Source of the DNA: Acidobacteriota bacterium
GTDB lineage: Bacteria > Acidobacteriota > UBA6911
Assembly (NCBI GenBank): GCA_016929335.1
Contig: JAFGIY010000014.1
Span: 30,586 to 94,585, forward strand
Direction of reading: 5' to 3'
DNA length: 64,000 nt
Shown here in pieces: positions 2,156-55,832 of this stretch (position 1 is its first letter; each line of letters starts with the position of its first letter). The position numbers and the translations under genes were made by a program. The notes beneath the pieces were generated by a model. The model ran no database searches, was not told the origin of the DNA, and worked only from the letters and a program-made list of their open reading frames with translations.

Positions 2156-4336
2156 TCAGGAGGTCAGGCCGACAATTACGCTGCGGGCTTCGTCGGTCAG
2201 GAAATCCCACAGCCCGAGTTCTTTCAGCGTTTCCGGCATAGGGATGCCGCAGGAATTCCAGCCGCGCTCCTTGTAATACAGGTCGATGAGCTTGCGCAGC
2301 TCTTCTTTCCGAAGCTCCATCAGGAGTCCGCGTTTGCGGCCGGTTGTCATCCCGTTAAGTTCTTCCGGAGTTTTGCCCATGCGCGCCGCCAGATCGCGAT
2401 TGTTATATTCGGCTTCGGTTTCGTAAAGAGCGTCATCGGTAGGGCCTATGGCGCGTTCGGGGATCCAATCGTAGCGTCCCGTATCCGGCCCATAGTGAAG
2501 CACATTTAAAACCCGCTGCAGATTGATGTCGCGGTCGGTCTGCGCAAAGATCTCCTCCCAGGTGAGCTCTGATCCCAGAAGTCCATTATAGAATTCGGCA
2601 TAAATCTCCTGAGATGCCGGATTGATGTAGATATCGGTATCGGTGCGAGTGGCGGACTCCGGATTGAACACATCAACCCAGGGCAGTTTACAAACTCCCA
2701 TATTGTCATTGCCGAGCCGGACGCGCGGGTAGTTGATCAGTGCACGGGCTTTGCTTTCGAAAGAGGGGAAGGCGCCGAGGAGATCAGCCTTGATAAGCCA
2801 TGCGGCAGCGTGGTGCGCGCCGATGTCGCTGGCTGCGGCATAGGAGCCCTGCATTGAGAGCGAGCGGTGCGTCCGGTAGAAGGAAAACGGCAAGCCCTTG
2901 GCATGCATTGCAAACTTCTCGATTTCGTGCCGGATATCCCGGCCTGTCCGATCTTTGTATCTGCGGGCAACCCAATCTGTCAGTTCTCTTATCCCCTTGC
3001 CGGCGGCCTGTGCCATCGCTGTTTTACCGGAGGCCAGCCGGTGGATAAACTCGAGAGCCGAGGTCTGATCTCCCCAGGAAAGGACCAGCCCCTCGCCATC
3101 CTGTTCCGTCAAAAGGCCGCGCTGAAAACACTCCATGAGGAAAGCGATGCCTCCTGCCGTGGTGATTGTGTCTATCCCGTAGTTATCACAGTGCCAGTTG
3201 GCTTCCATAATGAACTCGGCATTCCAGATCCCCAGGTTGGAGCCGAAGCCGGCGGCGGTTTCGTATTCAGGCCCATCTACCCAGACCTTCCGGCCGGCAT
3301 GAGGGCCGCTGGTAATAGCAACCCAGCCTCCTTTGGTGCATTGAAGGTTGCAGCCCGGGAAACACCCGTCCATGCCGCGGTGTTCGAAGAGATGCTGTTC
3401 GTAGTATTTTCCGCAGATCAATCCGGCCCGGGCATCGGATCCTGTCTGAAAGTTGCAAATGGGCAGCGACTGGTATTCATCCTTGCTCATAAAGCTGATC
3501 AAGCCTGCGCTTCCCTTGCGGTGCATTCTCAGCGATTGAGGATCGACTTCCCGGACAACCTTTTGCAATTTTGTCCCGGCTCTTTTTACCCGCTCCCAGT
3601 CCGCGGCTCCGTAAGGATTATTGCCGCGAGGATTTTCAACCAATATGACAATGGATTGGATCCTTTTGTCGCTCATGACGGAGCCGGTCCCGGTGCGGCC
3701 TGCCTGCTTTACACGGAAAAGGCCCCTGTGGCCGTCGACGGGTTTGGTGACATCGAAGTAGTGGCTGTTGATGCAGCCATAGGTTGTATTGGCTGCGCCG
3801 AGGCCGGTGGATAAAAACGCCATGCGGCGTTTGTCGTATCCTGCAGTTGTGAAGCGTTCGACGATGTCTTTTTCGATGCTGAAAGCCTCGGCATCCAGGG
3901 GGACATCCTCCAGCATCACCTTCCCTTTGTAGCCGTCGATGATGATGATTACGCCGCAGGATGCTTTGCCGGTCACCTGGAGTGCGTCAAATCCGGCGTA
4001 TTTAAGATAGGCTCCAAAGTACCCGCCGAAATTGGAGACTCCGGGTATTCCGGTCAAGGGGGACAGGGATACGGCCATTGCCTTCGCGGTTCCGGGGAAC
4101 TGCGGTATGCCTCCCAGGGGGCCGTTGGCGATTATCAGGGGATTTTCCGGATCGGATGCTTTGGTGCGCGGAGTGATCGCCTGATGCAGAAGATAGAGCC
4201 CGAGACTGCGGCCTCCCAGAAAATAATCCCGCACATGCATATCCAGTTCCGGCACGGTGATAGTTCCTGAAGTCAGATCAATGCTGAGAATCCTGTTGGT
4301 GTATCCTCTCTGAATGGGTCTGCTGGCAAAATCCAT
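2156..4336 (-). CDS. Aldehyde:ferredoxin oxidoreductase family (tungsten/molybdopterin) enzyme
   Basis: 726 aa. The N-terminus ...GYTNRILSIDLTSGTI..., the DxxGxC-type motif (DNMGVC), the Cys cluster (CFPGCNLQC) and the length are typical of AOR-family proteins. Confidence 0.85.
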   Translation of the reverse strand: MDFASRPIQRGYTNRILSIDLTSGTITVPELDMHVRDYFLGGRSLGLYLLHQAITPRTKASDPENPLIIANGPLGGIPQFPGTAKAMAVSLSPLTGIPGVSNFGGYFGAYLKYAGFDALQVTGKASCGVIIIIDGYKGKVMLEDVPLDAEAFSIEKDIVERFTTAGYDKRRMAFLSTGLGAANTTYGCINSHYFDVTKPVDGHRGLFRVKQAGRTGTGSVMSDKRIQSIVILVENPRGNNPYGAADWERVKRAGTKLQKVVREVDPQSLRMHRKGSAGLISFMSKDEYQSLPICNFQTGSDARAGLICGKYYEQHLFEHRGMDGCFPGCNLQCTKGGWVAITSGPHAGRKVWVDGPEYETAAGFGSNLGIWNAEFIMEANWHCDNYGIDTITTAGGIAFLMECFQRGLLTEQDGEGLVLSWGDQTSALEFIHRLASGKTAMAQAAGKGIRELTDWVARRYKDRTGRDIRHEIEKFAMHAKGLPFSFYRTHRSLSMQGSYAAASDIGAHHAAAWLIKADLLGAFPSFESKARALINYPRVRLGNDNMGVCKLPWVDVFNPESATRTDTDIYINPASQEIYAEFYNGLLGSELTWEEIFAQTDRDINLQRVLNVLHYGPDTGRYDWIPERAIGPTDDALYETEAEYNNRDLAARMGKTPEELNGMTTGRKRGLLMELRKEELRKLIDLYYKERGWNSCGIPMPETLKELGLWDFLTDEARSVIVGLTS

Positions 4337-4456: not shown

Positions 4457-4730
4457 ATGCGGGTCACGACTGAAGCGATTGTCTCAAAACCTGTTAAGGA
4501 GCGGGCTTTCAGCCCTTATCGCTTGCTTCAATGTTTTCCCAGGCTTGGCCCTGGGCTGATATGGGCCGCGCCTTCGGCGCTTTTAATCATTGATTATGCA
4601 TCAGTTAAAGCGCCGAAGGCGCGAACTATACCAGGGGCAGCGCCCCAGGAAAGGAGTTGCATTAACAAGAAGGCTGATAGCCCGAATCATTCCGGGTTTT
4701 GAGACAGCGGCTGAAGCCGCGACCCACATG
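4457..4730. repeat. Family-E foldback element copy E1 (MITE-like, ~35-bp terminal inverted repeats)
   Basis: The left end ATGCGGGTCACGACTGAAGCGATTGTCTCAAAACC mirrors the right end GGGTTTTGAGACAGCGGCTGAAGCCGCGACCCACATG. The interior is a chain of short palindromes and is ~85% identical to 51188-51458. Confidence 0.75.
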
Positions 4731-10141: not shown

Positions 10142-11269
10142 ATGGGCAGCGATCGAAGATCATTTCTTAAGAAAGCACTTGCGGGCTATGCGGCGGCAAA
10201 GGGGAGCATGCTGTTTGCATCGGCCCAAAATATTCCGCCATACGCCAAAGGCGCTCGGAAGCCCGGCAAAGTGGATTACAAGCGAATCGCAACCGAAGAA
10301 GCGTGGGGCCCTCCCGAATTGTTCAAGATGTATATCGACCTGATCGAGAACGGTGCTCTGACGGATCCGGGTTTTGTGTCCATGTGGGGACGCTTTGTCC
10401 GCAACACGGCATTGATCGGCCAGCTTCAGGATATCGGCGAGAAGCGGATACGCGACATGGATGCGGCCGGAGTGGATAAAATGGTTCTTTCCTTGACCGC
10501 TCCGGGAGTGCAGATCTTCGATGCTGCCACGGCGAATTCTCTTGCAACGTCGACCAACGATCAGCTGGCGGAAGCCATCAAAAAGCATCCCGACAGGTTT
10601 GCCGGGCTGGCTGCCGTCGCTCCTCAGGATCCCAGGGCAGCGGCGAAGGAAATGGAGAGAGGAATCAGGAAGCTCGGGCTGAACGGAGTGATCATCAATT
10701 CTCACACGAACGGCGAATATCTCGACGATCCGAAGTATTGGGAAATATTCGAGGCCGCACAGGCGCTGGACGCCGCGATCTACCTTCACCCTCAGACACC
10801 GCCTCCCGATATGGTCATGCCTTATCTGGCTCGAGGCTTCGAGCGGGCCATCATGGGTTTTGCCCATGAGCTTTCGGTCCACATTCTGGGCTTGATGACG
10901 GTCGGTGTCTTCGACCGCTTTCCAAAACTCAAGATCGTGATCGGCCATGGCGGCGAAGGATTGCCGTACATGCTCTATCGGCTCGATTACATGTATGAGA
11001 ACGCCCGGTATCCGTTCATGAAAAAGGTCCGGAAGCTTCCCAGCGATTATATGAAGGAAAACTTTTACATCACAACGAGCGGATTGCCGTGGGCTCCGGC
11101 GATCATGATGGCTCGGTCGGTCCTGGGAATCGACAGGATTTTGTATGCGATGGATTATCCTTACGAGTACGTCCCGGAAGAAGTGACCCTGACGGACAAT
11201 TTCCCGATGACGGCCGCCGAAAAGAAAAAGCTTTTCCAGCTGAACGCGGAAAAAGTTTTCAAACTTTGA
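10142..11269 (+). CDS. Amidohydrolase-2 (ACMSD-like) family protein with twin-arginine signal
   Basis: 375 aa with a Tat motif DRRSFLKKAL then an AxA-like cleavage region. The metal-dependent hydrolase pattern (HPQTPP..., VIGHGGEGLPY, LYAMDYPYE) is present. Confidence 0.75.
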   Translation: MGSDRRSFLKKALAGYAAAKGSMLFASAQNIPPYAKGARKPGKVDYKRIATEEAWGPPELFKMYIDLIENGALTDPGFVSMWGRFVRNTALIGQLQDIGEKRIRDMDAAGVDKMVLSLTAPGVQIFDAATANSLATSTNDQLAEAIKKHPDRFAGLAAVAPQDPRAAAKEMERGIRKLGLNGVIINSHTNGEYLDDPKYWEIFEAAQALDAAIYLHPQTPPPDMVMPYLARGFERAIMGFAHELSVHILGLMTVGVFDRFPKLKIVIGHGGEGLPYMLYRLDYMYENARYPFMKKVRKLPSDYMKENFYITTSGLPWAPAIMMARSVLGIDRILYAMDYPYEYVPEEVTLTDNFPMTAAEKKKLFQLNAEKVFKL

Positions 11270-11316
11270 GGCTTGGAGCCTTCGAGTCTTAGAGTTTATT
11301 ACTCAAAGACTCCAAA

Positions 11317-12687
11317 TTATGCGGCGCGGGCCCAGCGGATAAGGGTCGCAAAATTCGGCGGCTTGCCGTACATCAGGATGCCGATCCGGAAGATTTTCGC
11401 CGCCAGCCACAAAGCGCAAAACACCGATCCCACCCCGATCGCGATTGAAATCCACACCTGCCAGAAAGGCGGCGGAGCGCTGGACGCCATTCGCAGAAGC
11501 ATTGCGAATGTATTGACCGGCGGGATGAAGCTCATCGTTACGCTCAATGTCGAGTTGGGATCCGCCGATATCGGCATCCAGAGAATCCACGGTATTATAA
11601 ACATGATCGTCAACGGCGCCAGCAGTCCTTGAGCTTCTTTCATATCATTGACTGCCGCTCCTACTGCCATCATCAGTGATCCCATCACAAGATAGGTGAT
11701 GACGAAGAATACGATCAGGTAAAAAATCAGCCAGAAATTGAGCAGGCCGATAAGCGCAAAAAAGGAGAGCAGCATCAGCCCCATTGCCAGGTAGATGCAC
11801 ATTCCCACCAGACTGGCCGCCATCTGTCCGAGAAGCTTGCCGGCCATCAATTCCATCGGCGACACAGCCGATAAAAGAACCTCTACCACACGACTCGATT
11901 TTTCTTCGACCATGGTGGTGAGCAATTGGCCCCCGCCACCCATGACTCCCATAAACAGCAGGATTCCGAATGCAATCGGGAAAAGGTAGTTCAGGCCGGG
12001 GATGGTTTTTCGCTGATCGTCCTGGGTCACAGTCACGGACCGCACCGATGGAACATTGACGATGGCATCGATGGTTGCCCGATCAAGGGATCGCATCTGG
12101 AGCCGGGCATTGACGATTGCCTCGCGGAGGCCCCGTTGTATTTCACCCGTAACGCGGTCATCGAGCTTGGGCGGTACGAACAGATCATAGGTCCCGTATT
12201 CGAGATTGCTGCCGGAGGGTTCGACTGCGTTCGCATGAATCGCTATGAGCGCCAGGTGCGGCATTCCCTCGGATTGCGCGTTCAGCCAGGCTTTTTCCCG
12301 CTCGATGTCCGTGTCGGGAGGACGCGTCCGGATATGCAGATCAGGGATCGGCCCCATTGCAGTTCCTGCCTTCTCGCCGGCGGAACTGTCGGCAAGCTGG
12401 CGTACCTGCTGCGGCGCTCTTGCAATCGCTTTTTCCAATTCCTCCTTGCGCCGCGCCGCGATCCTTTCGGGATCAAAAGTCTTCTCCAGCTCGGGCAGGA
12501 CACTGTTGGTTGGATCGATCACCAGTATCTCGCCCTTCACCTGAAAATTCTTGAAGTTAAACAACCGAGGCACGATCAGGATCATTAGCGCAGCTATCAC
12601 AGGCGTAATCAACAGACCGATAACGAAACCCCGTGTAGCCACGGTGGATAGGAATTCGCGCTTTGCTATGCTCAATACATTTCTCAT
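11317..12687 (-). CDS. ABC-2 type transporter permease (NatB-like)
   Basis: 456 aa with an N-terminal TM, a large extracytoplasmic domain and a C-terminal cluster of TM helices. It overlaps the upstream ATPase gene by 4 nt. Confidence 0.8.
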   Translation of the reverse strand: MRNVLSIAKREFLSTVATRGFVIGLLITPVIAALMILIVPRLFNFKNFQVKGEILVIDPTNSVLPELEKTFDPERIAARRKEELEKAIARAPQQVRQLADSSAGEKAGTAMGPIPDLHIRTRPPDTDIEREKAWLNAQSEGMPHLALIAIHANAVEPSGSNLEYGTYDLFVPPKLDDRVTGEIQRGLREAIVNARLQMRSLDRATIDAIVNVPSVRSVTVTQDDQRKTIPGLNYLFPIAFGILLFMGVMGGGGQLLTTMVEEKSSRVVEVLLSAVSPMELMAGKLLGQMAASLVGMCIYLAMGLMLLSFFALIGLLNFWLIFYLIVFFVITYLVMGSLMMAVGAAVNDMKEAQGLLAPLTIMFIIPWILWMPISADPNSTLSVTMSFIPPVNTFAMLLRMASSAPPPFWQVWISIAIGVGSVFCALWLAAKIFRIGILMYGKPPNFATLIRWARAA

Positions 12688-45833: not shown

Positions 45834-47330
45834 TCACCGGCGCCGCAGGTGCAGCACATATCGCCTGTCATCTATCGAGTATTCTTTTGCACGAACGAGT
45901 CCTTCCGTGTCAGCCGGTGCATTTTCGACCGTGGTGAATAACGCATCACATGATTTCGGGATATGGATTGCTCCAATGGGAAGAACCCGGTGAGAGAAGC
46001 GATAGATGGCTGCACTGAAATCGGACAATTCCTCGAAATGATCTCCAATCATGCAGGCAGTCGGTTTGCGCCCCGGAGCGACAGCTTCGATGCGCGCTGT
46101 GATTTCTTCATAGACCGCCACCTTCCCGGGATTCCACTCGGGAATCCAGCTTGTTATGCGCTGATCCAGGCTTGCCGCCAAGCCGGCCAATAATGCGATC
46201 GCGGTGATGATCCTGGCAGCAGGGCGGTAAAATCGCACGGCTGCAGCGCTCACCAGGATCCAGAGAAAGGCCTGCTCGGTGGCTATTGAATAGATCCTCC
46301 GGGATCCCTCCGTGTATTGCCAGGGATCAAAGAGCAGAATCAGGCCGTAGCAGATTGCAAGCGACAGGAACGAAAACGGTTTCAGACGATGCGCAAAATC
46401 GGAGGCGGGCGATGGTCCGACCTTACAGCGCTTTGATTCGATCGCATATACGATCCATGCGACGATTAGCGCAATCGCCAGGAAGATAAAGCGAGAAGCG
46501 ACGGCCGATGTCCACAAGTGCCGGAAGGACTCTGCCAGCGAACTCACAGCCTGGTTCCCTTCCTTGTTGATCATGAGCGGCCATTCAGTGGGAATCGTGG
46601 GGAGTCGGTCGTTAAAAACCAGCCATCCGAACAGGACAGCTGTCAAAAAGAGCGGAGGAATCGACCAGAGAAAGGCAAAAGTGCGTCGATAGCCGTTGTC
46701 GGAAAGAATGGTCTTCCCGTTGAGCAAAGTCAGAGAGAACAGGTAGAACCACATCGAATCGCGCGTCAATAACGCAGCGGCTCCCACAACCGGTAGCCAG
46801 CGGCGTCTGGCTAATTCGAGTGCGCCGCCATACAGCAGAAGATAGAACAAGGCGATCGCGGTTATTTCCTGATACAACGTCGTACTGCTGCGCGCGATGA
46901 CAGCCTGCTGCGCGAAACAGAACATCACCGCGAGGCTTATCAGCAAACCGCGCCAGTTCCTGCCGAGAAATCGCAGCCCCAACAGCCCGAGTCCCAGTAC
47001 CGCCAGAAATAGATGCGCGCACGGAATCAGGTTGAAGAATGAATACGGAACATCAAATCTGGCCAATCCCCAGATTAGCCACTGAAGATAGGGAAGCCAG
47101 ACGCGGTTCCCCATACGGGCAATAAGCCGGTCCGCATTCAGCATGCGGACCGAAGCATCTCCCGTAAAAATCGGATTGCCCAGCGCAATGATCGCTTTCC
47201 AGGCAAAGAGGGCAAAAGCAAATGCGACCACGCAGATGACGAAGTATTTCGGTGATAAACGACTGAACTCCGGTTTATTAGAGGAATCGCTATTATTGCT
47301 GGCCGGAGCTGTTTCAGACATGGGGCGCAT
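45834..47330 (-). CDS. Polytopic membrane protein, GT-C-like glycosyltransferase (putative)
   Basis: 498 aa with ~10 TM helices followed by a ~130-aa soluble C-terminal domain. No motif-level assignment. Confidence 0.5.
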   Translation of the reverse strand: MRPMSETAPASNNSDSSNKPEFSRLSPKYFVICVVAFAFALFAWKAIIALGNPIFTGDASVRMLNADRLIARMGNRVWLPYLQWLIWGLARFDVPYSFFNLIPCAHLFLAVLGLGLLGLRFLGRNWRGLLISLAVMFCFAQQAVIARSSTTLYQEITAIALFYLLLYGGALELARRRWLPVVGAAALLTRDSMWFYLFSLTLLNGKTILSDNGYRRTFAFLWSIPPLFLTAVLFGWLVFNDRLPTIPTEWPLMINKEGNQAVSSLAESFRHLWTSAVASRFIFLAIALIVAWIVYAIESKRCKVGPSPASDFAHRLKPFSFLSLAICYGLILLFDPWQYTEGSRRIYSIATEQAFLWILVSAAAVRFYRPAARIITAIALLAGLAASLDQRITSWIPEWNPGKVAVYEEITARIEAVAPGRKPTACMIGDHFEELSDFSAAIYRFSHRVLPIGAIHIPKSCDALFTTVENAPADTEGLVRAKEYSIDDRRYVLHLRRR

Positions 47331-49580: not shown

Positions 49581-50321
49581 CTACCGTGCGCTGTACTGGA
49601 CCATGACAAAAATGCCGGATTCTCCGACGTTTCTGGCGTTGGAAAGTATAAGGATAAATTCTCTTTCCTCTTTCTCCCCGCTTTTGCCCGGCAACTCCAG
49701 TTCGATACTTTTGGTCTGAGCCGGTTCGATCGTTATGTTTCCTTCTTTCGTCCCATCATAATAGATGGTTTTGCCGTCTTTTGAGCGAATTGCGGTGATT
49801 ACCAGGGGGAGGGATCCTTCATTGGTCACCAAAAGGGACTGCTTTTTGCCGGTATCGCGTTCGGTTCCTGCAAGCACGACTCTTCGCGGAGCGACCGCGA
49901 TCTTAGCTCCAGGCGCTTCAAGCACTTCTCCTTTTATCGTAAAAATGTCGATTTTATCGTGTCCTGGGATGTTGGTAGTAAGAGTGACCTTTTTATCGAA
50001 AGGCCCCGGCCTGCCTGAGGTGGCATAGGTTACTATGATATCGGTTTTTTCGTTCGGATTCAGTGTACGCTTTCCAAGCGTAGCTTCGGTGCACGCTCAG
50101 CTGGTCCTCACGTTGGTGATTTCAACGGGCGTGTCTCCCACATTTTGCAGGGTGGCTGTTGCCTCGACTGTCTTTCCTTCCGCAACCGTTCCTGCGTCGT
50201 AATGATCGGGTGTGGCTTTGAGAATTATGGCCGAGTCCTCAGAAGCCGCAGACAGCCCTGCAAAGAGCATAGCCATGCAAAAAATACTGCCGGCTGTCAC
50301 CGAAGCTTTTCCGCGTTTCAT
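49581..50321 (-). CDS. DUF1573-family secreted protein with in-frame TGA (candidate selenocysteine) at 50097-50099
   Basis: Two same-frame ORFs are separated by one TGA. There is a strong SD before ATG 50321 and a signal peptide. NVRTS-[TGA]-ACT aligns with the family motif NVR.SCGCT. A hairpin lies at 50066-50082. The alternative reading is a pseudogene or sequencing error. Confidence 0.6.
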
Positions 50322-50375
50322 AAAACTCTCCCCTTTCCATTCGGCATGTTCGAAGAACACACTATATAGTATTGC

Positions 50376-50825
50376 TTACTCGCCATGTATGTTTTTAACC
50401 TTTGCCTCATAGTTGAATCCCGGGTCCTGGCCCTCGGTGTGGCATTGCCTGCATAATGCGGCGCCCGATTCCTTGACGATTGTTTTGGCTGTCGGATCTG
50501 CCATATGCGCACTGCCCGGGCCGTGGCATGCTTCGCACTGCACTCCGGCCATTTCCGGAGTCAATTCGTGGTCGATAAATCCGCCATCCTTTTCATATCC
50601 GGTCACATGGCACTTCACGCAGGCAGGCAGCTTTTCCTGTCCTGTTTTTTTCAGGCTTTCAATGGCTTTTGCGTGCCGTGTTTTTTGCCATGTATCGTTG
50701 ATGGTGGAATGACACATTGCACATTTTTCACCACCTACATAGGACGCGGATTGTTCGGAACCGGCTCCTGCCGCACTCACAAGCAGAAGCAGCAATACGA
50801 TCACAGAACCCTTTTTAATCCTCAT
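50376..50825 (-). CDS. Tetrahaem c-type cytochrome
   Basis: ~149 aa from ATG 50825, with a signal peptide and four CxxCH motifs (CAMCH, CVKCH, CEACH, CRQCH). Confidence 0.8.
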   Translation of the reverse strand: MRIKKGSVIVLLLLLVSAAGAGSEQSASYVGGEKCAMCHSTINDTWQKTRHAKAIESLKKTGQEKLPACVKCHVTGYEKDGGFIDHELTPEMAGVQCEACHGPGSAHMADPTAKTIVKESGAALCRQCHTEGQDPGFNYEAKVKNIHGE

Positions 50826-51671: not shown

Positions 51672-53666
51672 ATGAATAAGCATGTGGTCGCCGTGCTGTC
51701 GCTGCTTATGATGTCTTTCAACGCTTTAGCTGTAGACCGCACAACAACTGGCGAACTGATCATTGATCCGCCTACGCTTATGGCCCTGGGATTTGCATGG
51801 CATATTGAGGGCGATGATAACCGCAACGCGCAGGTTTCCATTACATATCGCAGGAGCGGTGAGACGAACTGGTCGCGCGGCCTCGACCTGATGCGCCTGC
51901 AGAACGAGGAGACTTTCCTGCGTGGCTCGCTCGACTACACGTCTCCCAATATGTTTGCCGGAAGCCTTTTCGACCTGAAGGAGAACACGGAATATGAAGT
52001 GCGCCTGCAGATTCAGGATCCGGATGGCGTCAGCGGCGATGCGATAAAAACCGTTGCCGTTCGGACACGCGCCGAGCCAATGCCCTCAGCCGACGGCCGC
52101 ATATTTCACGCTTATCCGCCGGGCTTTAAAGGGCCGCGTCAGGAGCCTGCCTTCTCCGGGTTGCTCGAGGCTTACTACATGGCATCGCTCGGTGGAGACT
52201 GGAGCCGTGCGTCGCCGCCGCGCGTACATGCGGGCGATATCATCAAAGTTCACGCGGGCGTTTACCTCAGCAAGCACGATCATTATTCTCATGAAATAAA
52301 TTCCGGTTTCACGACATGCTGCGGGACGCCGTGGGACGGTACGTATTACCTGACCCAGGACGGTACGGCAGAACGCCCGATTGCCATCATCGCGGCGGGC
52401 GACGGCGAAGTCGTTTTTGACGGCGACGGCAATACCGTCCTGTTCAATCTCATGGGCGCGCAATATCACCACTTTGAAGGCATTACATTCCGCAACACGG
52501 ATACAGCCATTGAGGCCGGCATGAAGGAAATAGCCGGCGCGAAGGGGATTGCCGTCAAGCATTGCCGTTTCGAGAATATCGGCGTCGCGGTTCATTCAGA
52601 CTGGGCCGGCTCGAGCGGTTTCTACATCGCCGACAACGATATGCTCGGCCGCGAGGACCTGAATTCCGTCTTCACATGGTTTGCAGTCGAGCCGTGGGTC
52701 AGCCGACCGGATTTCACAACGCGCGGCAAGATGAAATCCTTCTATGCCGTCTCCATCTATGGCCAGGGGCATGTGATCGCCTACAATAGGGTGAGAGGAT
52801 TTCACGACGGAATCGACCACGCGACCTATGGAATGCCCGATGGCTACCCGAATACGCCACGCGACCGCTTGCCTGTCGCCATCGACATTTATAATAATGA
52901 CGTTTCGGTCGTTCATGACAACTGCTTCGAAGCGGACGGATCCGTACGTAATGTGCGCGTCATGCGCAACCGCTGTTTCAATGCGCCGCTCGGCGCCATG
53001 AGTCCTCAACCCATACTCGGAGGGCCGGCATATTTCATCCGGAACGTCGTCTATAACGCGTGGTGGGGACCAGTAAAGGTACATGGCGAGCCTTCCGGTG
53101 TTTATTACCTGAACAACACGTACATCGGAGAATTCAGACAGCTTACGCCCATGTCCAATGTGCATCTGCGGAACAACCTGATTTTGGGGCAGGGCACCAC
53201 ACAGCGGGTGTTTTCGCTGGAAACATTTACCAATTACAGCTCTTCCGATTACAACGGATTCCGACCGAATCCGGAGACAAAAGAAGCCTTTGCGTGGAGT
53301 TCTCCGCCTTTTGAGAAACCAAGGGATTTCTATCCAATGCGCCGAACTGATCCGAAAGCGGCCATTGCTCTCACACAGCGGGTATTTCCGACACTGCAAT
53401 CGTATTCGCAGGCGACAGGACAGGATCGCCACAGCCTGCTGGTCGATTATGACATTTTCGTTGCGGCACCGATGCCGGATTTTTCGGACCCAACCCGCGT
53501 AGTCGCTGTGGATTCGTTGGATCTGAGGTTGCGTGAGGGCTCTGCAGTCATCGATGCAGGCATTGTGTTGCCGAATGTAACGGATGGATTCCGGGGAAGC
53601 GCTCCGGACCTTGGCGCTTATGAATTCGGCGCGCCGCTCCCTCATTACGGGCCCCGATCCCGGTAG
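51672..53666 (+). CDS. Secreted right-handed parallel beta-helix repeat protein
   Basis: 664 aa with a signal peptide (MNKHVVAVLSLLMMSFNALA). The central region has periodic N/D/G-rich turns typical of the pectate-lyase-fold (I/V-x-N ladder). Substrate unknown. Confidence 0.65.
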   Translation: MNKHVVAVLSLLMMSFNALAVDRTTTGELIIDPPTLMALGFAWHIEGDDNRNAQVSITYRRSGETNWSRGLDLMRLQNEETFLRGSLDYTSPNMFAGSLFDLKENTEYEVRLQIQDPDGVSGDAIKTVAVRTRAEPMPSADGRIFHAYPPGFKGPRQEPAFSGLLEAYYMASLGGDWSRASPPRVHAGDIIKVHAGVYLSKHDHYSHEINSGFTTCCGTPWDGTYYLTQDGTAERPIAIIAAGDGEVVFDGDGNTVLFNLMGAQYHHFEGITFRNTDTAIEAGMKEIAGAKGIAVKHCRFENIGVAVHSDWAGSSGFYIADNDMLGREDLNSVFTWFAVEPWVSRPDFTTRGKMKSFYAVSIYGQGHVIAYNRVRGFHDGIDHATYGMPDGYPNTPRDRLPVAIDIYNNDVSVVHDNCFEADGSVRNVRVMRNRCFNAPLGAMSPQPILGGPAYFIRNVVYNAWWGPVKVHGEPSGVYYLNNTYIGEFRQLTPMSNVHLRNNLILGQGTTQRVFSLETFTNYSSSDYNGFRPNPETKEAFAWSSPPFEKPRDFYPMRRTDPKAAIALTQRVFPTLQSYSQATGQDRHSLLVDYDIFVAAPMPDFSDPTRVVAVDSLDLRLREGSAVIDAGIVLPNVTDGFRGSAPDLGAYEFGAPLPHYGPRSR

Positions 53667-54662: not shown

Positions 54663-55544
54663 TTATTTGCACGCCGGCTCATCCGGCCAGCCTATTGTTT
54701 TGTATTGCTTCCCATATTCAAAATAAGCCTGGATCCAATCAACCAGGCCGTTTCTCATTTTGAACATATGGAAATCAGGCCAGACGTTGTTAAAAAGTGT
54801 GTACGCAACGACGATGCCCGTTTCCTCATCTACAAGGAATCGTCGGGGGCTGTGGGTCATGTCCGCGAAGCCCACGGGCGAGCAATTGTGCGCAGGCATT
54901 GTTACTCCCTGATTCGTTCCTCCCTTTGTTGTCTGCGCGCCGTTTTCCCAGCGGTCGCAGGTCTTGGAGTAAGGAAGAATGGAGACTTTGCGCGGTTGCT
55001 TCTGGACGAACAATTCAAAATAGTCGTCGGCTGCTGCCATCATTGTCAGGCGGGAGCTCCGCTGCTCGGGTGGAAGAATGCCTTCCCAATCCTGGTCTTT
55101 TGTGTCCAGAATGGCTTGAACGTCGAGCACTTCCTTCCCGCGAACAACAACGGCTTCGATCTCGGAAATCTTCTCCTTGTCGACTTTAAGCCGAACTCCG
55201 TAAAGCATCGGCTTGCCGGCTTCATCAATTATGGCTTGCGTATGCGTCCCGCATTTCTGAGTGTCGATCATGCCGCGTTTGAAAGTCAGCTTGCCGGCAG
55301 TTTCCCAGGATCCCTTTCCAACTGCGACCTCTATGCCGTTTTCTGTGTATCTCACTCCGGAGGCGAGCGGCAGACTTGATGGAGTGTGCGCTTCAAGAGC
55401 TGTAAAGAATTTATCCGTGATGGCCTTGAGGCTCTCACGCGTGCATGCCTGGCCGCTTGTTTGCGCTATCGCTGCGGCATTGCTGACCAAAATCAAATAA
55501 CAAACTGCTCCTCCCGATAGTGCCCATCGCAGTGCTCTTTTCAT
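54663..55544 (-). CDS. Secreted hypothetical protein
   Basis: 293 aa from ATG 55544, with AGGAGG 8 nt upstream, and a signal peptide ending AAAIAQ. The longer track ORF runs through the tRNA gene. Confidence 0.6.
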   Translation of the reverse strand: MKRALRWALSGGAVCYLILVSNAAAIAQTSGQACTRESLKAITDKFFTALEAHTPSSLPLASGVRYTENGIEVAVGKGSWETAGKLTFKRGMIDTQKCGTHTQAIIDEAGKPMLYGVRLKVDKEKISEIEAVVVRGKEVLDVQAILDTKDQDWEGILPPEQRSSRLTMMAAADDYFELFVQKQPRKVSILPYSKTCDRWENGAQTTKGGTNQGVTMPAHNCSPVGFADMTHSPRRFLVDEETGIVVAYTLFNNVWPDFHMFKMRNGLVDWIQAYFEYGKQYKTIGWPDEPACK

Positions 55545-55678
55545 CGTGGAATCCTCCTGATCGGTTCGCTTGAATCCATGTCTTCGGGAAATGAGTCTCT
55601 TTGCACCTGTCGATGCCGAATTCCCGGGAATGGCAAGCCCTTGTCCAGAATAAGGTTTAATAACTGGCTGTGAGTTAG

Positions 55679-55768
<90 letters not shown>

Positions 55769-55832
55769 GTGTCGGAAGCCTGTTGATTGTATGTCTCCGG
55801 CCATGGAACCGCAAGTGATTAAAAATGCTTGC

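Follow-up and report, generated by a model that had tools for sequence, protein, structure and literature searches.

The stretch of DNA considered here (the window) is 64,000 nucleotides (nt) long and comes from contig JAFGIY010000014.1 of an Acidobacteriota bacterium. Its minus strand carries a gene for a predicted secreted, two-domain protein of the DUF1573 family, whose reading frame is interrupted by one TGA. This codon lies in a column that is conserved as either UGA or Cys and is followed by a covarying hairpin; the protein belongs to an established domain family, and the gene has a recurring neighborhood that includes a tetraheme cytochrome c. In this work we examine the TGA as a candidate selenocysteine (Sec) codon.

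The interrupted gene

The gene and the elements that define its product are all on the minus strand:

49581–50321, minus strand: complete gene for a putative secreted DUF1573 selenoprotein of 246 residues, with ATG at 50321–50319, the candidate Sec codon as codon 75 and TAG at 49581–49583
50326–50333, minus strand: Shine-Dalgarno-like GGGGAGAG, 4 nt before the ATG, read directly from the sequence
50244–50321, minus strand: predicted N-terminal signal peptide, residues 1–26, MKRGKASVTAGSIFCMAMLFAGLSAA, suggested by its basic-hydrophobic-AxA pattern
50097–50099, minus strand: in-frame UGA, candidate Sec codon (residue 75), in the first-Cys column of a C-x-C motif (41 TGA sequences)

The frame from 49581 to 50360 contains exactly one internal stop, this TGA, and ends with the TAG. 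Read through from the ATG, it encodes the 246-residue product, in which the peptide around the TGA is EITNVRTS-U-ACTEATLGKRTL and the C terminus, ...VMVQYSAR, is without Cys. Homologs align with the product over residues 1–246, across the TGA, and both sides of the codon are conserved at the protein level. A similar GGAAAGGGGA stretch stands ahead of the ATG in the related locus L001. A sequence-only reading of the window had described the single interruption, the ATG with its Shine-Dalgarno motif, the 246-residue product and the same peptide around the stop, all of which hold on direct reading. It had also stated that TGA is used as a normal stop elsewhere in the window. Indeed, TGA terminates 15 of the 48 largest open reading frames (ORFs) of the window, including a Cytochrom_C_asm (ccmC-like) gene at 1256–1945. 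The genetic code in the window is therefore the standard one, and reassignment of TGA is ruled out as an explanation for the interruption.

In the window, residue 81, six codons after the TGA, is Thr (ACG); at this position homologs have an ATG that is used by gene callers. The first possible start codon after the TGA lies 57 codons downstream. A scan of the window for other TGA-selenoprotein candidates, which demanded 55 or more open codons to either side of the TGA, yielded none that was convincing besides 50097–50099; those long hits that were checked against the gene map were antisense to real genes.

Conservation of the UGA codon

Canonical DUF1573 proteins have the motif ISNVTSS-C-G-C-T (Mariniflexile, L005) or IKRVKTS-C-G-C-T (L003, L004), and the closest full-length database homologs (P0001, P0005, P0012, P0014 and P0026; 54–63% identity) have ITNV.TN-C-A-C-TEA. 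The window protein reads ITNVRTS-U-A-C-T at the same place. In both the canonical and the close full-length homologs, the residue aligned with the TGA is the first Cys of C-x-C (SSCGCT or TSCGCT in the former, TNCACTEA in the latter, TS-U-ACTEA in the window), which is the position that had been proposed for it from the window alone.

A metagenome scan supplied 55 further loci. Including the window, 41 distinct sequences have TGA at this very codon, the 40 others sharing 53–76% identity. Cys (TGC/TGT) occupies the column in 11 loci, comprising seven distant relatives and four close ones (L020, L024, L025 and L049). All 41 Sec forms read U-A-C, the close Cys forms read C-A-C, and the Cys-containing homologs are continuous proteins of 239–247 residues. 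Examples of the Sec form include L001, a 6.9-Mb genome contig with VRTS-TGA-ACTEAMLGKHTL and a cytochrome gene upstream, and L002, an Acidobacteria metagenome-assembled genome (MAG) with VRTT-TGA-ACTEA and 55% identity.

Apart from roughly six, the best 120 matches in a protein search are proteins of 160–170 residues that cover the part after the TGA, the C-terminal two-thirds of the query, and nothing before it. The six short calls that were read start 5–11 residues after the TGA, five of them at MLGKHTL. More than 100 public gene calls of this subfamily are truncated at the same TGA. The entries derived from NCBI, JGI, ENA and Logan that were looked up for P0002–P0120 carry no selenoprotein annotation. 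In one 1,048-nt contig (L011), a TAA is found at codon +24 after the TGA, where all other sequences have Tyr (TAT/TAC); similarity runs on to the end of the gene, and this TAA is probably a sequencing error or a mark of a recent pseudogene.

According to PMC1976440, the comparative criteria for a selenoprotein are an aligned Cys in homologs and a UGA that is kept in at least two different sequences. Here the frame is conserved, the column holds Cys or a conserved UGA, and a stem-loop lies 3' of the codon, so that on comparative grounds the window gene qualifies as encoding a bacterial selenoprotein. The split of the column between Sec and Cys is the classical pairing by which selenoprotein families are defined.

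A covarying hairpin downstream of the UGA

Two alternative hairpins can be drawn at the site, of which hairpin B resembles a selenocysteine insertion sequence (SECIS):

50066–50082, minus strand: SECIS-like hairpin B, with a 7-bp stem UACGCUU/AAGCGUA and a GGA loop, starting 14 nt after the UGA
50074–50100, minus strand: hairpin A of the minimum-free-energy fold, which includes the UGA; its 3' arm is the 5' arm of hairpin B, making the two mutually exclusive

Hairpin B was the element pointed out in the sequence-only reading, and it is well supported by comparison. The element is 17 nt in size, and its loop G's lie 21–22 nt after the UGA. Forty distinct Sec-form sequences, each taken over 90 nt that surround the TGA, could be aligned without gaps (alignment A2), and in this alignment the stem (columns 33–39 with 43–49) has standard pairs in 280 of 280 cells. 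Two of the pairs show compensatory changes: 16 sequences have G-C in place of A-U, and the window has C-G in place of U-A. The covariation score was reached by none of 500 shuffles. When the 3' partner is slid by 1–3 columns, pairing falls to 19–63%. The loop is GGA in 36 of the 40 sequences and GGC in the remaining four and always starts with GG; guanosine conservation within the apical loop is noted as the hallmark of bacterial SECIS elements in PMC1976440. The covariation is most apparent between codons +6 and +10:

AUG at codon +6: CAU at codon +10 in 21 of 21 sequences, never CAC
GUG at codon +6: CAC at codon +10 in 13 sequences
GUG at codon +6: CAU or CGC (wobble) at codon +10 in 6 sequences
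ACG at codon +6 (window): CGU at codon +10 in 1 sequence

Synonymous choice within the element is also strongly restricted, as seen for four of its residues:

Ala +5: GCU 100% in the element, 15% elsewhere in the same genes
Leu +7: CUU 100% in the element, 25% elsewhere in the same genes
Lys +9: AAG 100% in the element, 34% elsewhere in the same genes
Gly +8: GGA 92% in the element, 40% elsewhere in the same genes

Across 11-codon segments spanning 137 codons (−36 to +100), the least synonymous variation falls at −1 to +11, with a rate of synonymous differences of 0.23–0.25 vs 0.50 in the rest of the gene. All four close Cys forms depart from the Sec-form consensus, be it by a mismatch in the stem, by additional wobble pairs or by GAA in the loop. 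Such decay would be expected once the element is no longer needed.

Hairpin A behaves differently. It can pair in 99.8% of cells in 40 sequences, but its columns are invariant or show one-sided wobble changes and no two-sided ones, and its covariation score is no better than that of shuffles. Mild support for it comes from Ala +1, which is GCR in 97% of cases vs 52% elsewhere. With its loop 7–12 nt from the UGA and no covariation, hairpin A was ruled out as the SECIS; a loop 7–12 nt past a UGA in the A site would lie inside the ribosome. The helix may melt as the ribosome arrives, freeing the strand for hairpin B. One possibility is that the two hairpins form a ribosome-actuated switch: the SECIS would then fold only after the passing ribosome had opened the helix that contains the UGA. 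Hairpin A could thus be a switch of this kind or a by-product of other constraints.

Domain architecture and structural model

The two domains of the protein are encoded as follows:

49923–50216, minus strand: DUF1573 or HYDIN/VesB-like immunoglobulin-like (Ig-like) domain, residues 36–133, with the U-A-C motif (PF07610, PF22544)
49584–49904, minus strand: second Ig-like beta-sandwich, residues ~140–246, without Cys or Sec (AlphaFold model of P0001)

For Pfam scoring of the window protein, U was read as C. The match to PF07610 (DUF1573) scores 93.5 bits against a gathering threshold of 26.1 (E = 8.4e-27) and covers profile positions 3–98 of 98, and PF22544 (HYDIN/VesB-like Ig) also matches (E = 2.8e-17). 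With a score above the threshold and a C-x-C motif that follows the ...N(V/I)..(T/S)S strand, the protein belongs to Pfam DUF1573.

Structure was modeled with AlphaFold for the Cys homolog P0001 from a 30-sequence alignment, giving a mean predicted local distance difference test score (pLDDT) of 87. In the model, two Ig-like beta-sandwiches follow a disordered N terminus. The first 30 residues, equivalent to the predicted signal peptide of the window protein, have pLDDT <50, which is consistent with a signal peptide. The C-x-C motif is located in an exposed turn between strands 67–74 and 79–83 of the Ig-like domain, and strands run throughout residues 142–244.

The product had been described from the window sequence as containing two DUF1573-like repeats. 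A second Ig-like beta-sandwich is indeed predicted by AlphaFold, but Pfam finds one DUF1573 domain only, hhalign gives a probability of 5% for a match between domains 1 and 2, and domain 2 lacks C-x-C. We therefore reject two DUF1573 repeats at the level of sequence and retain the idea solely as a structural duplication. No Pfam model matches the second domain, which resembles domain 1 in no more than a weak local motif. The only folds that Foldseek returned were generic Ig ones of the PapD-like/ASH kind (HYDIN, CEP192, pilus chaperones, 2qsv), and they give no clue to function.

Evidence for selenocysteine insertion and alternative explanations

Based on the sequence comparisons above, we place the probability of SelB- and SECIS-dependent Sec insertion at codon 75 of this secreted two-domain DUF1573 protein at about 0.87–0.9. 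Several pieces of evidence favor this reading: (i) A single TGA interrupts a gene that is conserved on both sides of it, and the same codon is TGA in 41 sequences and Cys elsewhere. (ii) Hairpin B covaries, synonymous sites over it are suppressed, and the Cys forms have lost the element. (iii) DUF1573 is already catalogued as a selenoprotein family, and in L001 the neighboring gene has an in-frame TGA of its own. This neighbor (L001:6811–8595, plus strand), directly downstream of the DUF1573 gene, encodes a UGSC-family protein (NF041046) that gene callers split at the TGA into parts of 121 and 456 residues (...AIVLVGH-U-SSCSPAV...). This TGA is followed by a GC-rich hairpin whose loop is AGUU, and the gene appears to encode a second selenoprotein of the cluster.

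Other results weigh against Sec insertion. Hairpin B is weak, with a free energy of about −5 to −7 kcal/mol, and the minimum-free-energy fold of the free RNA is hairpin A, which is more stable than B and competes with it. Neither hairpin was more stable than shuffles (z = −0.97 and −0.86), and hairpin B was not significant against them in any single sequence. We take the support for a SECIS from the comparative data because single-sequence thermodynamics gives none. Searches of Rfam around the site at the gathering threshold, and likewise at E≤10, gave no SECIS-type match. Among the 30 largest ORFs of the window, Pfam scans found no SelA, SelB or SelD domain, and ARAGORN found no tRNA-Sec in the window, reporting tRNA-Ser(GGA) as the single tRNA. 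A tRNA search in 25 related loci found none. The missing Sec machinery is weak counter-evidence, since the window covers no more than 64 kb of the genome.

A TGA is one base away from TGC or TGT, and contigs of this kind do suffer errors or decay, as the extra TAA in L011 indicates, so that the interruption might in principle be a sequencing or assembly error or a recent pseudogenizing mutation. However, the identical codon is found in 41 sequences from many independent assemblies at 53–76% identity, the protein is conserved on both sides of it, and the RNA element is conserved alongside. Because the 41 sequences share the TGA at exactly the same codon, sequencing error and a private pseudogene are excluded, and this explanation is effectively refuted. 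It is very improbable, too, that translation stops at the UGA to yield a 74-residue secreted fragment together with a separately started C-terminal protein. More than 100 homolog gene calls do take this form, as ORFs of 160–170 residues from an ATG six codons past the TGA (MLGKHTL...), yet that restart codon is not conserved, being ACG in the window and GTG in many homologs, and no Shine-Dalgarno motif is seen upstream of it by eye (no scan was run). A split would also cut one Pfam domain and one beta-sandwich in two and would deprive the C-terminal part of a signal peptide, whereas the Cys homologs are unbroken proteins.

A slightly stronger competitor, which we nonetheless consider improbable, accepts recoding through a SECIS and SelB but has Cys inserted by a tRNASec-like tRNACys (SelC*) or another opal suppressor, giving C-A-C. 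SelC* tRNACys that mimic tRNASec, and suppressor-like allo-tRNAs in Acidobacteria, have been described (PMC5389517), the window is from Acidobacteriota, and nothing in it identifies the tRNA used for UGA. On the other hand, the selC* genes of that study are from Firmicutes, Thermodesulfobacteria, Nitrospirae and Proteobacteria rather than Acidobacteria, and Acidobacteria are on record as having selenoproteins, that is, as Sec users (PMC1794560). The UGA and the SECIS have been kept in 41 diverged sequences even though one base change gives Cys and Cys forms exist, which argues that Sec itself is selected.

Gene neighborhood

One neighboring gene recurs with the DUF1573 gene in the window and its relatives, and another is found near it in several of the related loci:

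50376–50825, minus strand: secreted tetraheme cytochrome c of the Cytochrome_C554 family, with four CxxCH motifs (PF13435, E = 1.8e-20)
L019:2020–2487, L029:2509–2964 and L002:2515–2964: examples of the secreted rhodanese

The cytochrome gene is co-oriented with the putative selenoprotein gene, and its stop at 50376 lies 54 nt upstream of the ATG, in agreement with the tetraheme cytochrome c and the spacing read earlier from the window. In 35 related loci, the next gene upstream of the DUF1573 gene is an ortholog of this cytochrome. The best NCBIfam match of the window cytochrome is the UshA-like (seleno)protein model NF041198, with 130 bits, below the cut-off, over positions 399–519, which correspond to the C-terminal heme domain; through this domain the cytochrome type appears to be linked to another selenoprotein family.

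A secreted rhodanese of ~150 residues, with the active-site stretch YCDCGPGE, is located near the DUF1573 gene in 14 loci. In L002, L025, L029, L032, L039, L041 and L042 it is the gene directly upstream of DUF1573, and in L015, L016, L019, L021, L023, L037 and L054 it is upstream of the cytochrome. Its best NCBIfam relative, below the cut-off, is 'rhodanese-related (seleno)protein'.

Elsewhere in the window, an aldehyde:ferredoxin oxidoreductase gene (AFOR_N/AFOR_C) is present at 2156–4336 (minus strand), and L001 has one at 10488–12501 (plus strand), ~4 kb from its DUF1573 gene; these genes are consistent with an anaerobic lifestyle. Near the operon, two large ORFs matched no Pfam or NCBIfam model at the thresholds applied: 51672–53666 (plus strand; 664 residues, with a signal-peptide-like N terminus) and 45834–47330 (minus strand; 498 residues, hydrophobic). 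A 383-codon ORF at 54663–55814 (minus strand) overlaps the tRNA-Ser(GGA) at 55679–55768 (minus strand) and is improbable as a full-length gene. An Rfam Acido-Lenti-1 RNA is found at 4538–4581 (plus strand), with 38.6 bits vs a gathering score of 37; it hints at an acidobacterial or lentisphaerian source, and the homolog in the Acidobacteria MAG L002 also suggests an acidobacterial one.

Proposed mechanism and function

We infer that Sec is in fact inserted at this codon, that the protein is exported, and that it has a biochemical role. In the proposed mechanism, the UGA replaces the first Cys of C-x-C, which places U-A-C within a tight turn that joins two beta strands. Hairpin B, with its 7-bp stem and GGA loop, would direct the recoding: with the UGA in the A site, a hairpin that starts 14 nt after it would be located just outside the ribosome, accessible to SelB carrying Sec-tRNASec. 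In the periplasm, the U-x-C center would most plausibly cycle between a selenol/thiol and a selenenylsulfide form, or carry a sulfur or selenium adduct. Its partners would be the co-transcribed tetraheme cytochrome c and, in relatives, the secreted rhodanese.

A role in periplasmic sulfur or selenium redox chemistry is suggested because the gene partners encode a tetraheme cytochrome c and a rhodanese and the U-x-C motif is predicted to be in an exposed turn. We tentatively propose that the U-x-C protein handles sulfane sulfur, selenium or a metalloid in the periplasm, either as a carrier or as a redox relay, a suggestion that we hold with less than even confidence. The case for it is circumstantial, being drawn from the gene neighborhood and the chemistry of the motif, and further points tell against it: no rhodanese was detectable in the window by tblastn at E≤1e-5, a sequence search of the PDB returned nothing significant and so no relative of solved structure, and the searchable literature turned up no characterized DUF1573 member or functional study. 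More speculative still, and rather unlikely, is that the U-A-C DUF1573 subfamily, the c554-like cytochrome and the secreted CDCGPGE rhodanese make up an undescribed periplasmic module. Its Ig-like selenoprotein would be a covalent carrier or redox relay for sulfane sulfur, selenium or a metalloid, comparable to SoxYZ/SoxAX though not related to them by sequence. The U-A-C subfamily is found mainly in uncultured bacteria, and a taxonomic label was seen for one member only, the Acidobacteria MAG.

Comparison with known systems

Sec/Cys-x-Cys selenoproteins have been known in the DUF1573 family since 2007, and the present gene represents no new phenomenon and overturns nothing. In the reviews PMC9312934 and PMC13188914, DUF1573 is listed as a selenoprotein family with the motif UGC, and both listings trace to PMC1976440, a study of the Olavius symbionts from 2007 whose text never uses the name DUF1573. 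From the order of entries in the review tables and the NCBIfam match, the catalogued DUF1573 selenoprotein is taken to be OS_HP2 of that study. The catalogue entries, including NCBIfam NF041425 (OS_HP2 family (seleno)protein), were unknown to the sequence-only reading, and the novelty that it implied is overstated.

OS_HP2, from the delta-symbionts of Olavius algarvensis, shares with the window protein the PF07610 domain, Sec at the first Cys of C-x-C and a mixture of Sec and Cys homologs, and it was predicted by the same comparative criteria (PMC1976440). The two differ in that the catalogued motif is U-G-C and that of the window protein is U-A-C. The C-terminal Ig-like domain of the window protein and the cytochrome and rhodanese neighbors go unmentioned in the portions of PMC1976440, PMC9312934 and PMC13188914 at hand. 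Against NF041425 the window protein scores 58.7 bits (E = 5.6e-16), below the cut-off of 100, and by the NCBI criterion it is not a member. Because of the U-A-C motif, the added Ig-like domain, the cytochrome and/or rhodanese context and this score below the cut-off, we regard the window protein, from sequence comparison, as representing a new and well-populated subfamily of the known DUF1573 selenoprotein family.

This assignment has several implications. The window gene and well over 100 public homologs are annotated as split or truncated genes at what is almost certainly a Sec codon, and since the NF041425 cut-off misses the subfamily, a dedicated model would fix many records. The subfamily would extend DUF1573 selenoproteins to a two-domain U-A-C form, and its cytochrome c and rhodanese neighbors offer the first concrete functional lead for DUF1573, pointing to periplasmic chalcogen redox or transfer. 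In addition, hairpin B is a compact, well-sampled bacterial SECIS candidate with a 7-bp stem, a GG(A/C) triloop and clear covariation, which could help to refine SECIS models.

The best comparison for hairpin B is the fdhF SECIS of Escherichia coli, likewise a hairpin inside the coding region immediately 3' of the UGA, whose apical loop has one or more conserved guanosines. The minimal E. coli SECIS is 17 nt in size and lies 11 nt from the UGA, close to the 17 nt and 14 nt of the window element. In contrast to fdhF, the window element has a GGA/GGC triloop instead of a GGUC-type loop and no bulged U, and its binding by SelB is predicted. The spacer between the UGA and the hairpin also differs, in that it does not lengthen the helix in the window and can form the competing hairpin with the 5' arm.

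Among other catalogued selenoproteins with short U/C motifs, UGSC (NF041046) and the UshA-like family (NF041198) have other folds and are not DUF1573 homologs. Functional analogies can be drawn to SoxYZ and SoxAX, which act in periplasmic thiosulfate oxidation, and to Sud, which acts in the polysulfide respiration of Wolinella. The window protein was considered as a SoxYZ-type sulfur carrier and rejected: neither SoxY nor SoxZ Pfam models match the protein, the C terminus lacks Cys, and the reactive residue would be in an internal turn rather than on a C-terminal GGCGG swinging arm. The window cytochrome differs from SoxAX in being a c554-type tetraheme protein, and no other sox genes were seen. 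The likeness to the SoxYZ/SoxAX and Sud systems is a working analogy: a secreted Ig-like protein would present an exposed, reactive Cys or Sec and is encoded beside a periplasmic c-type cytochrome, with a secreted rhodanese in relatives.

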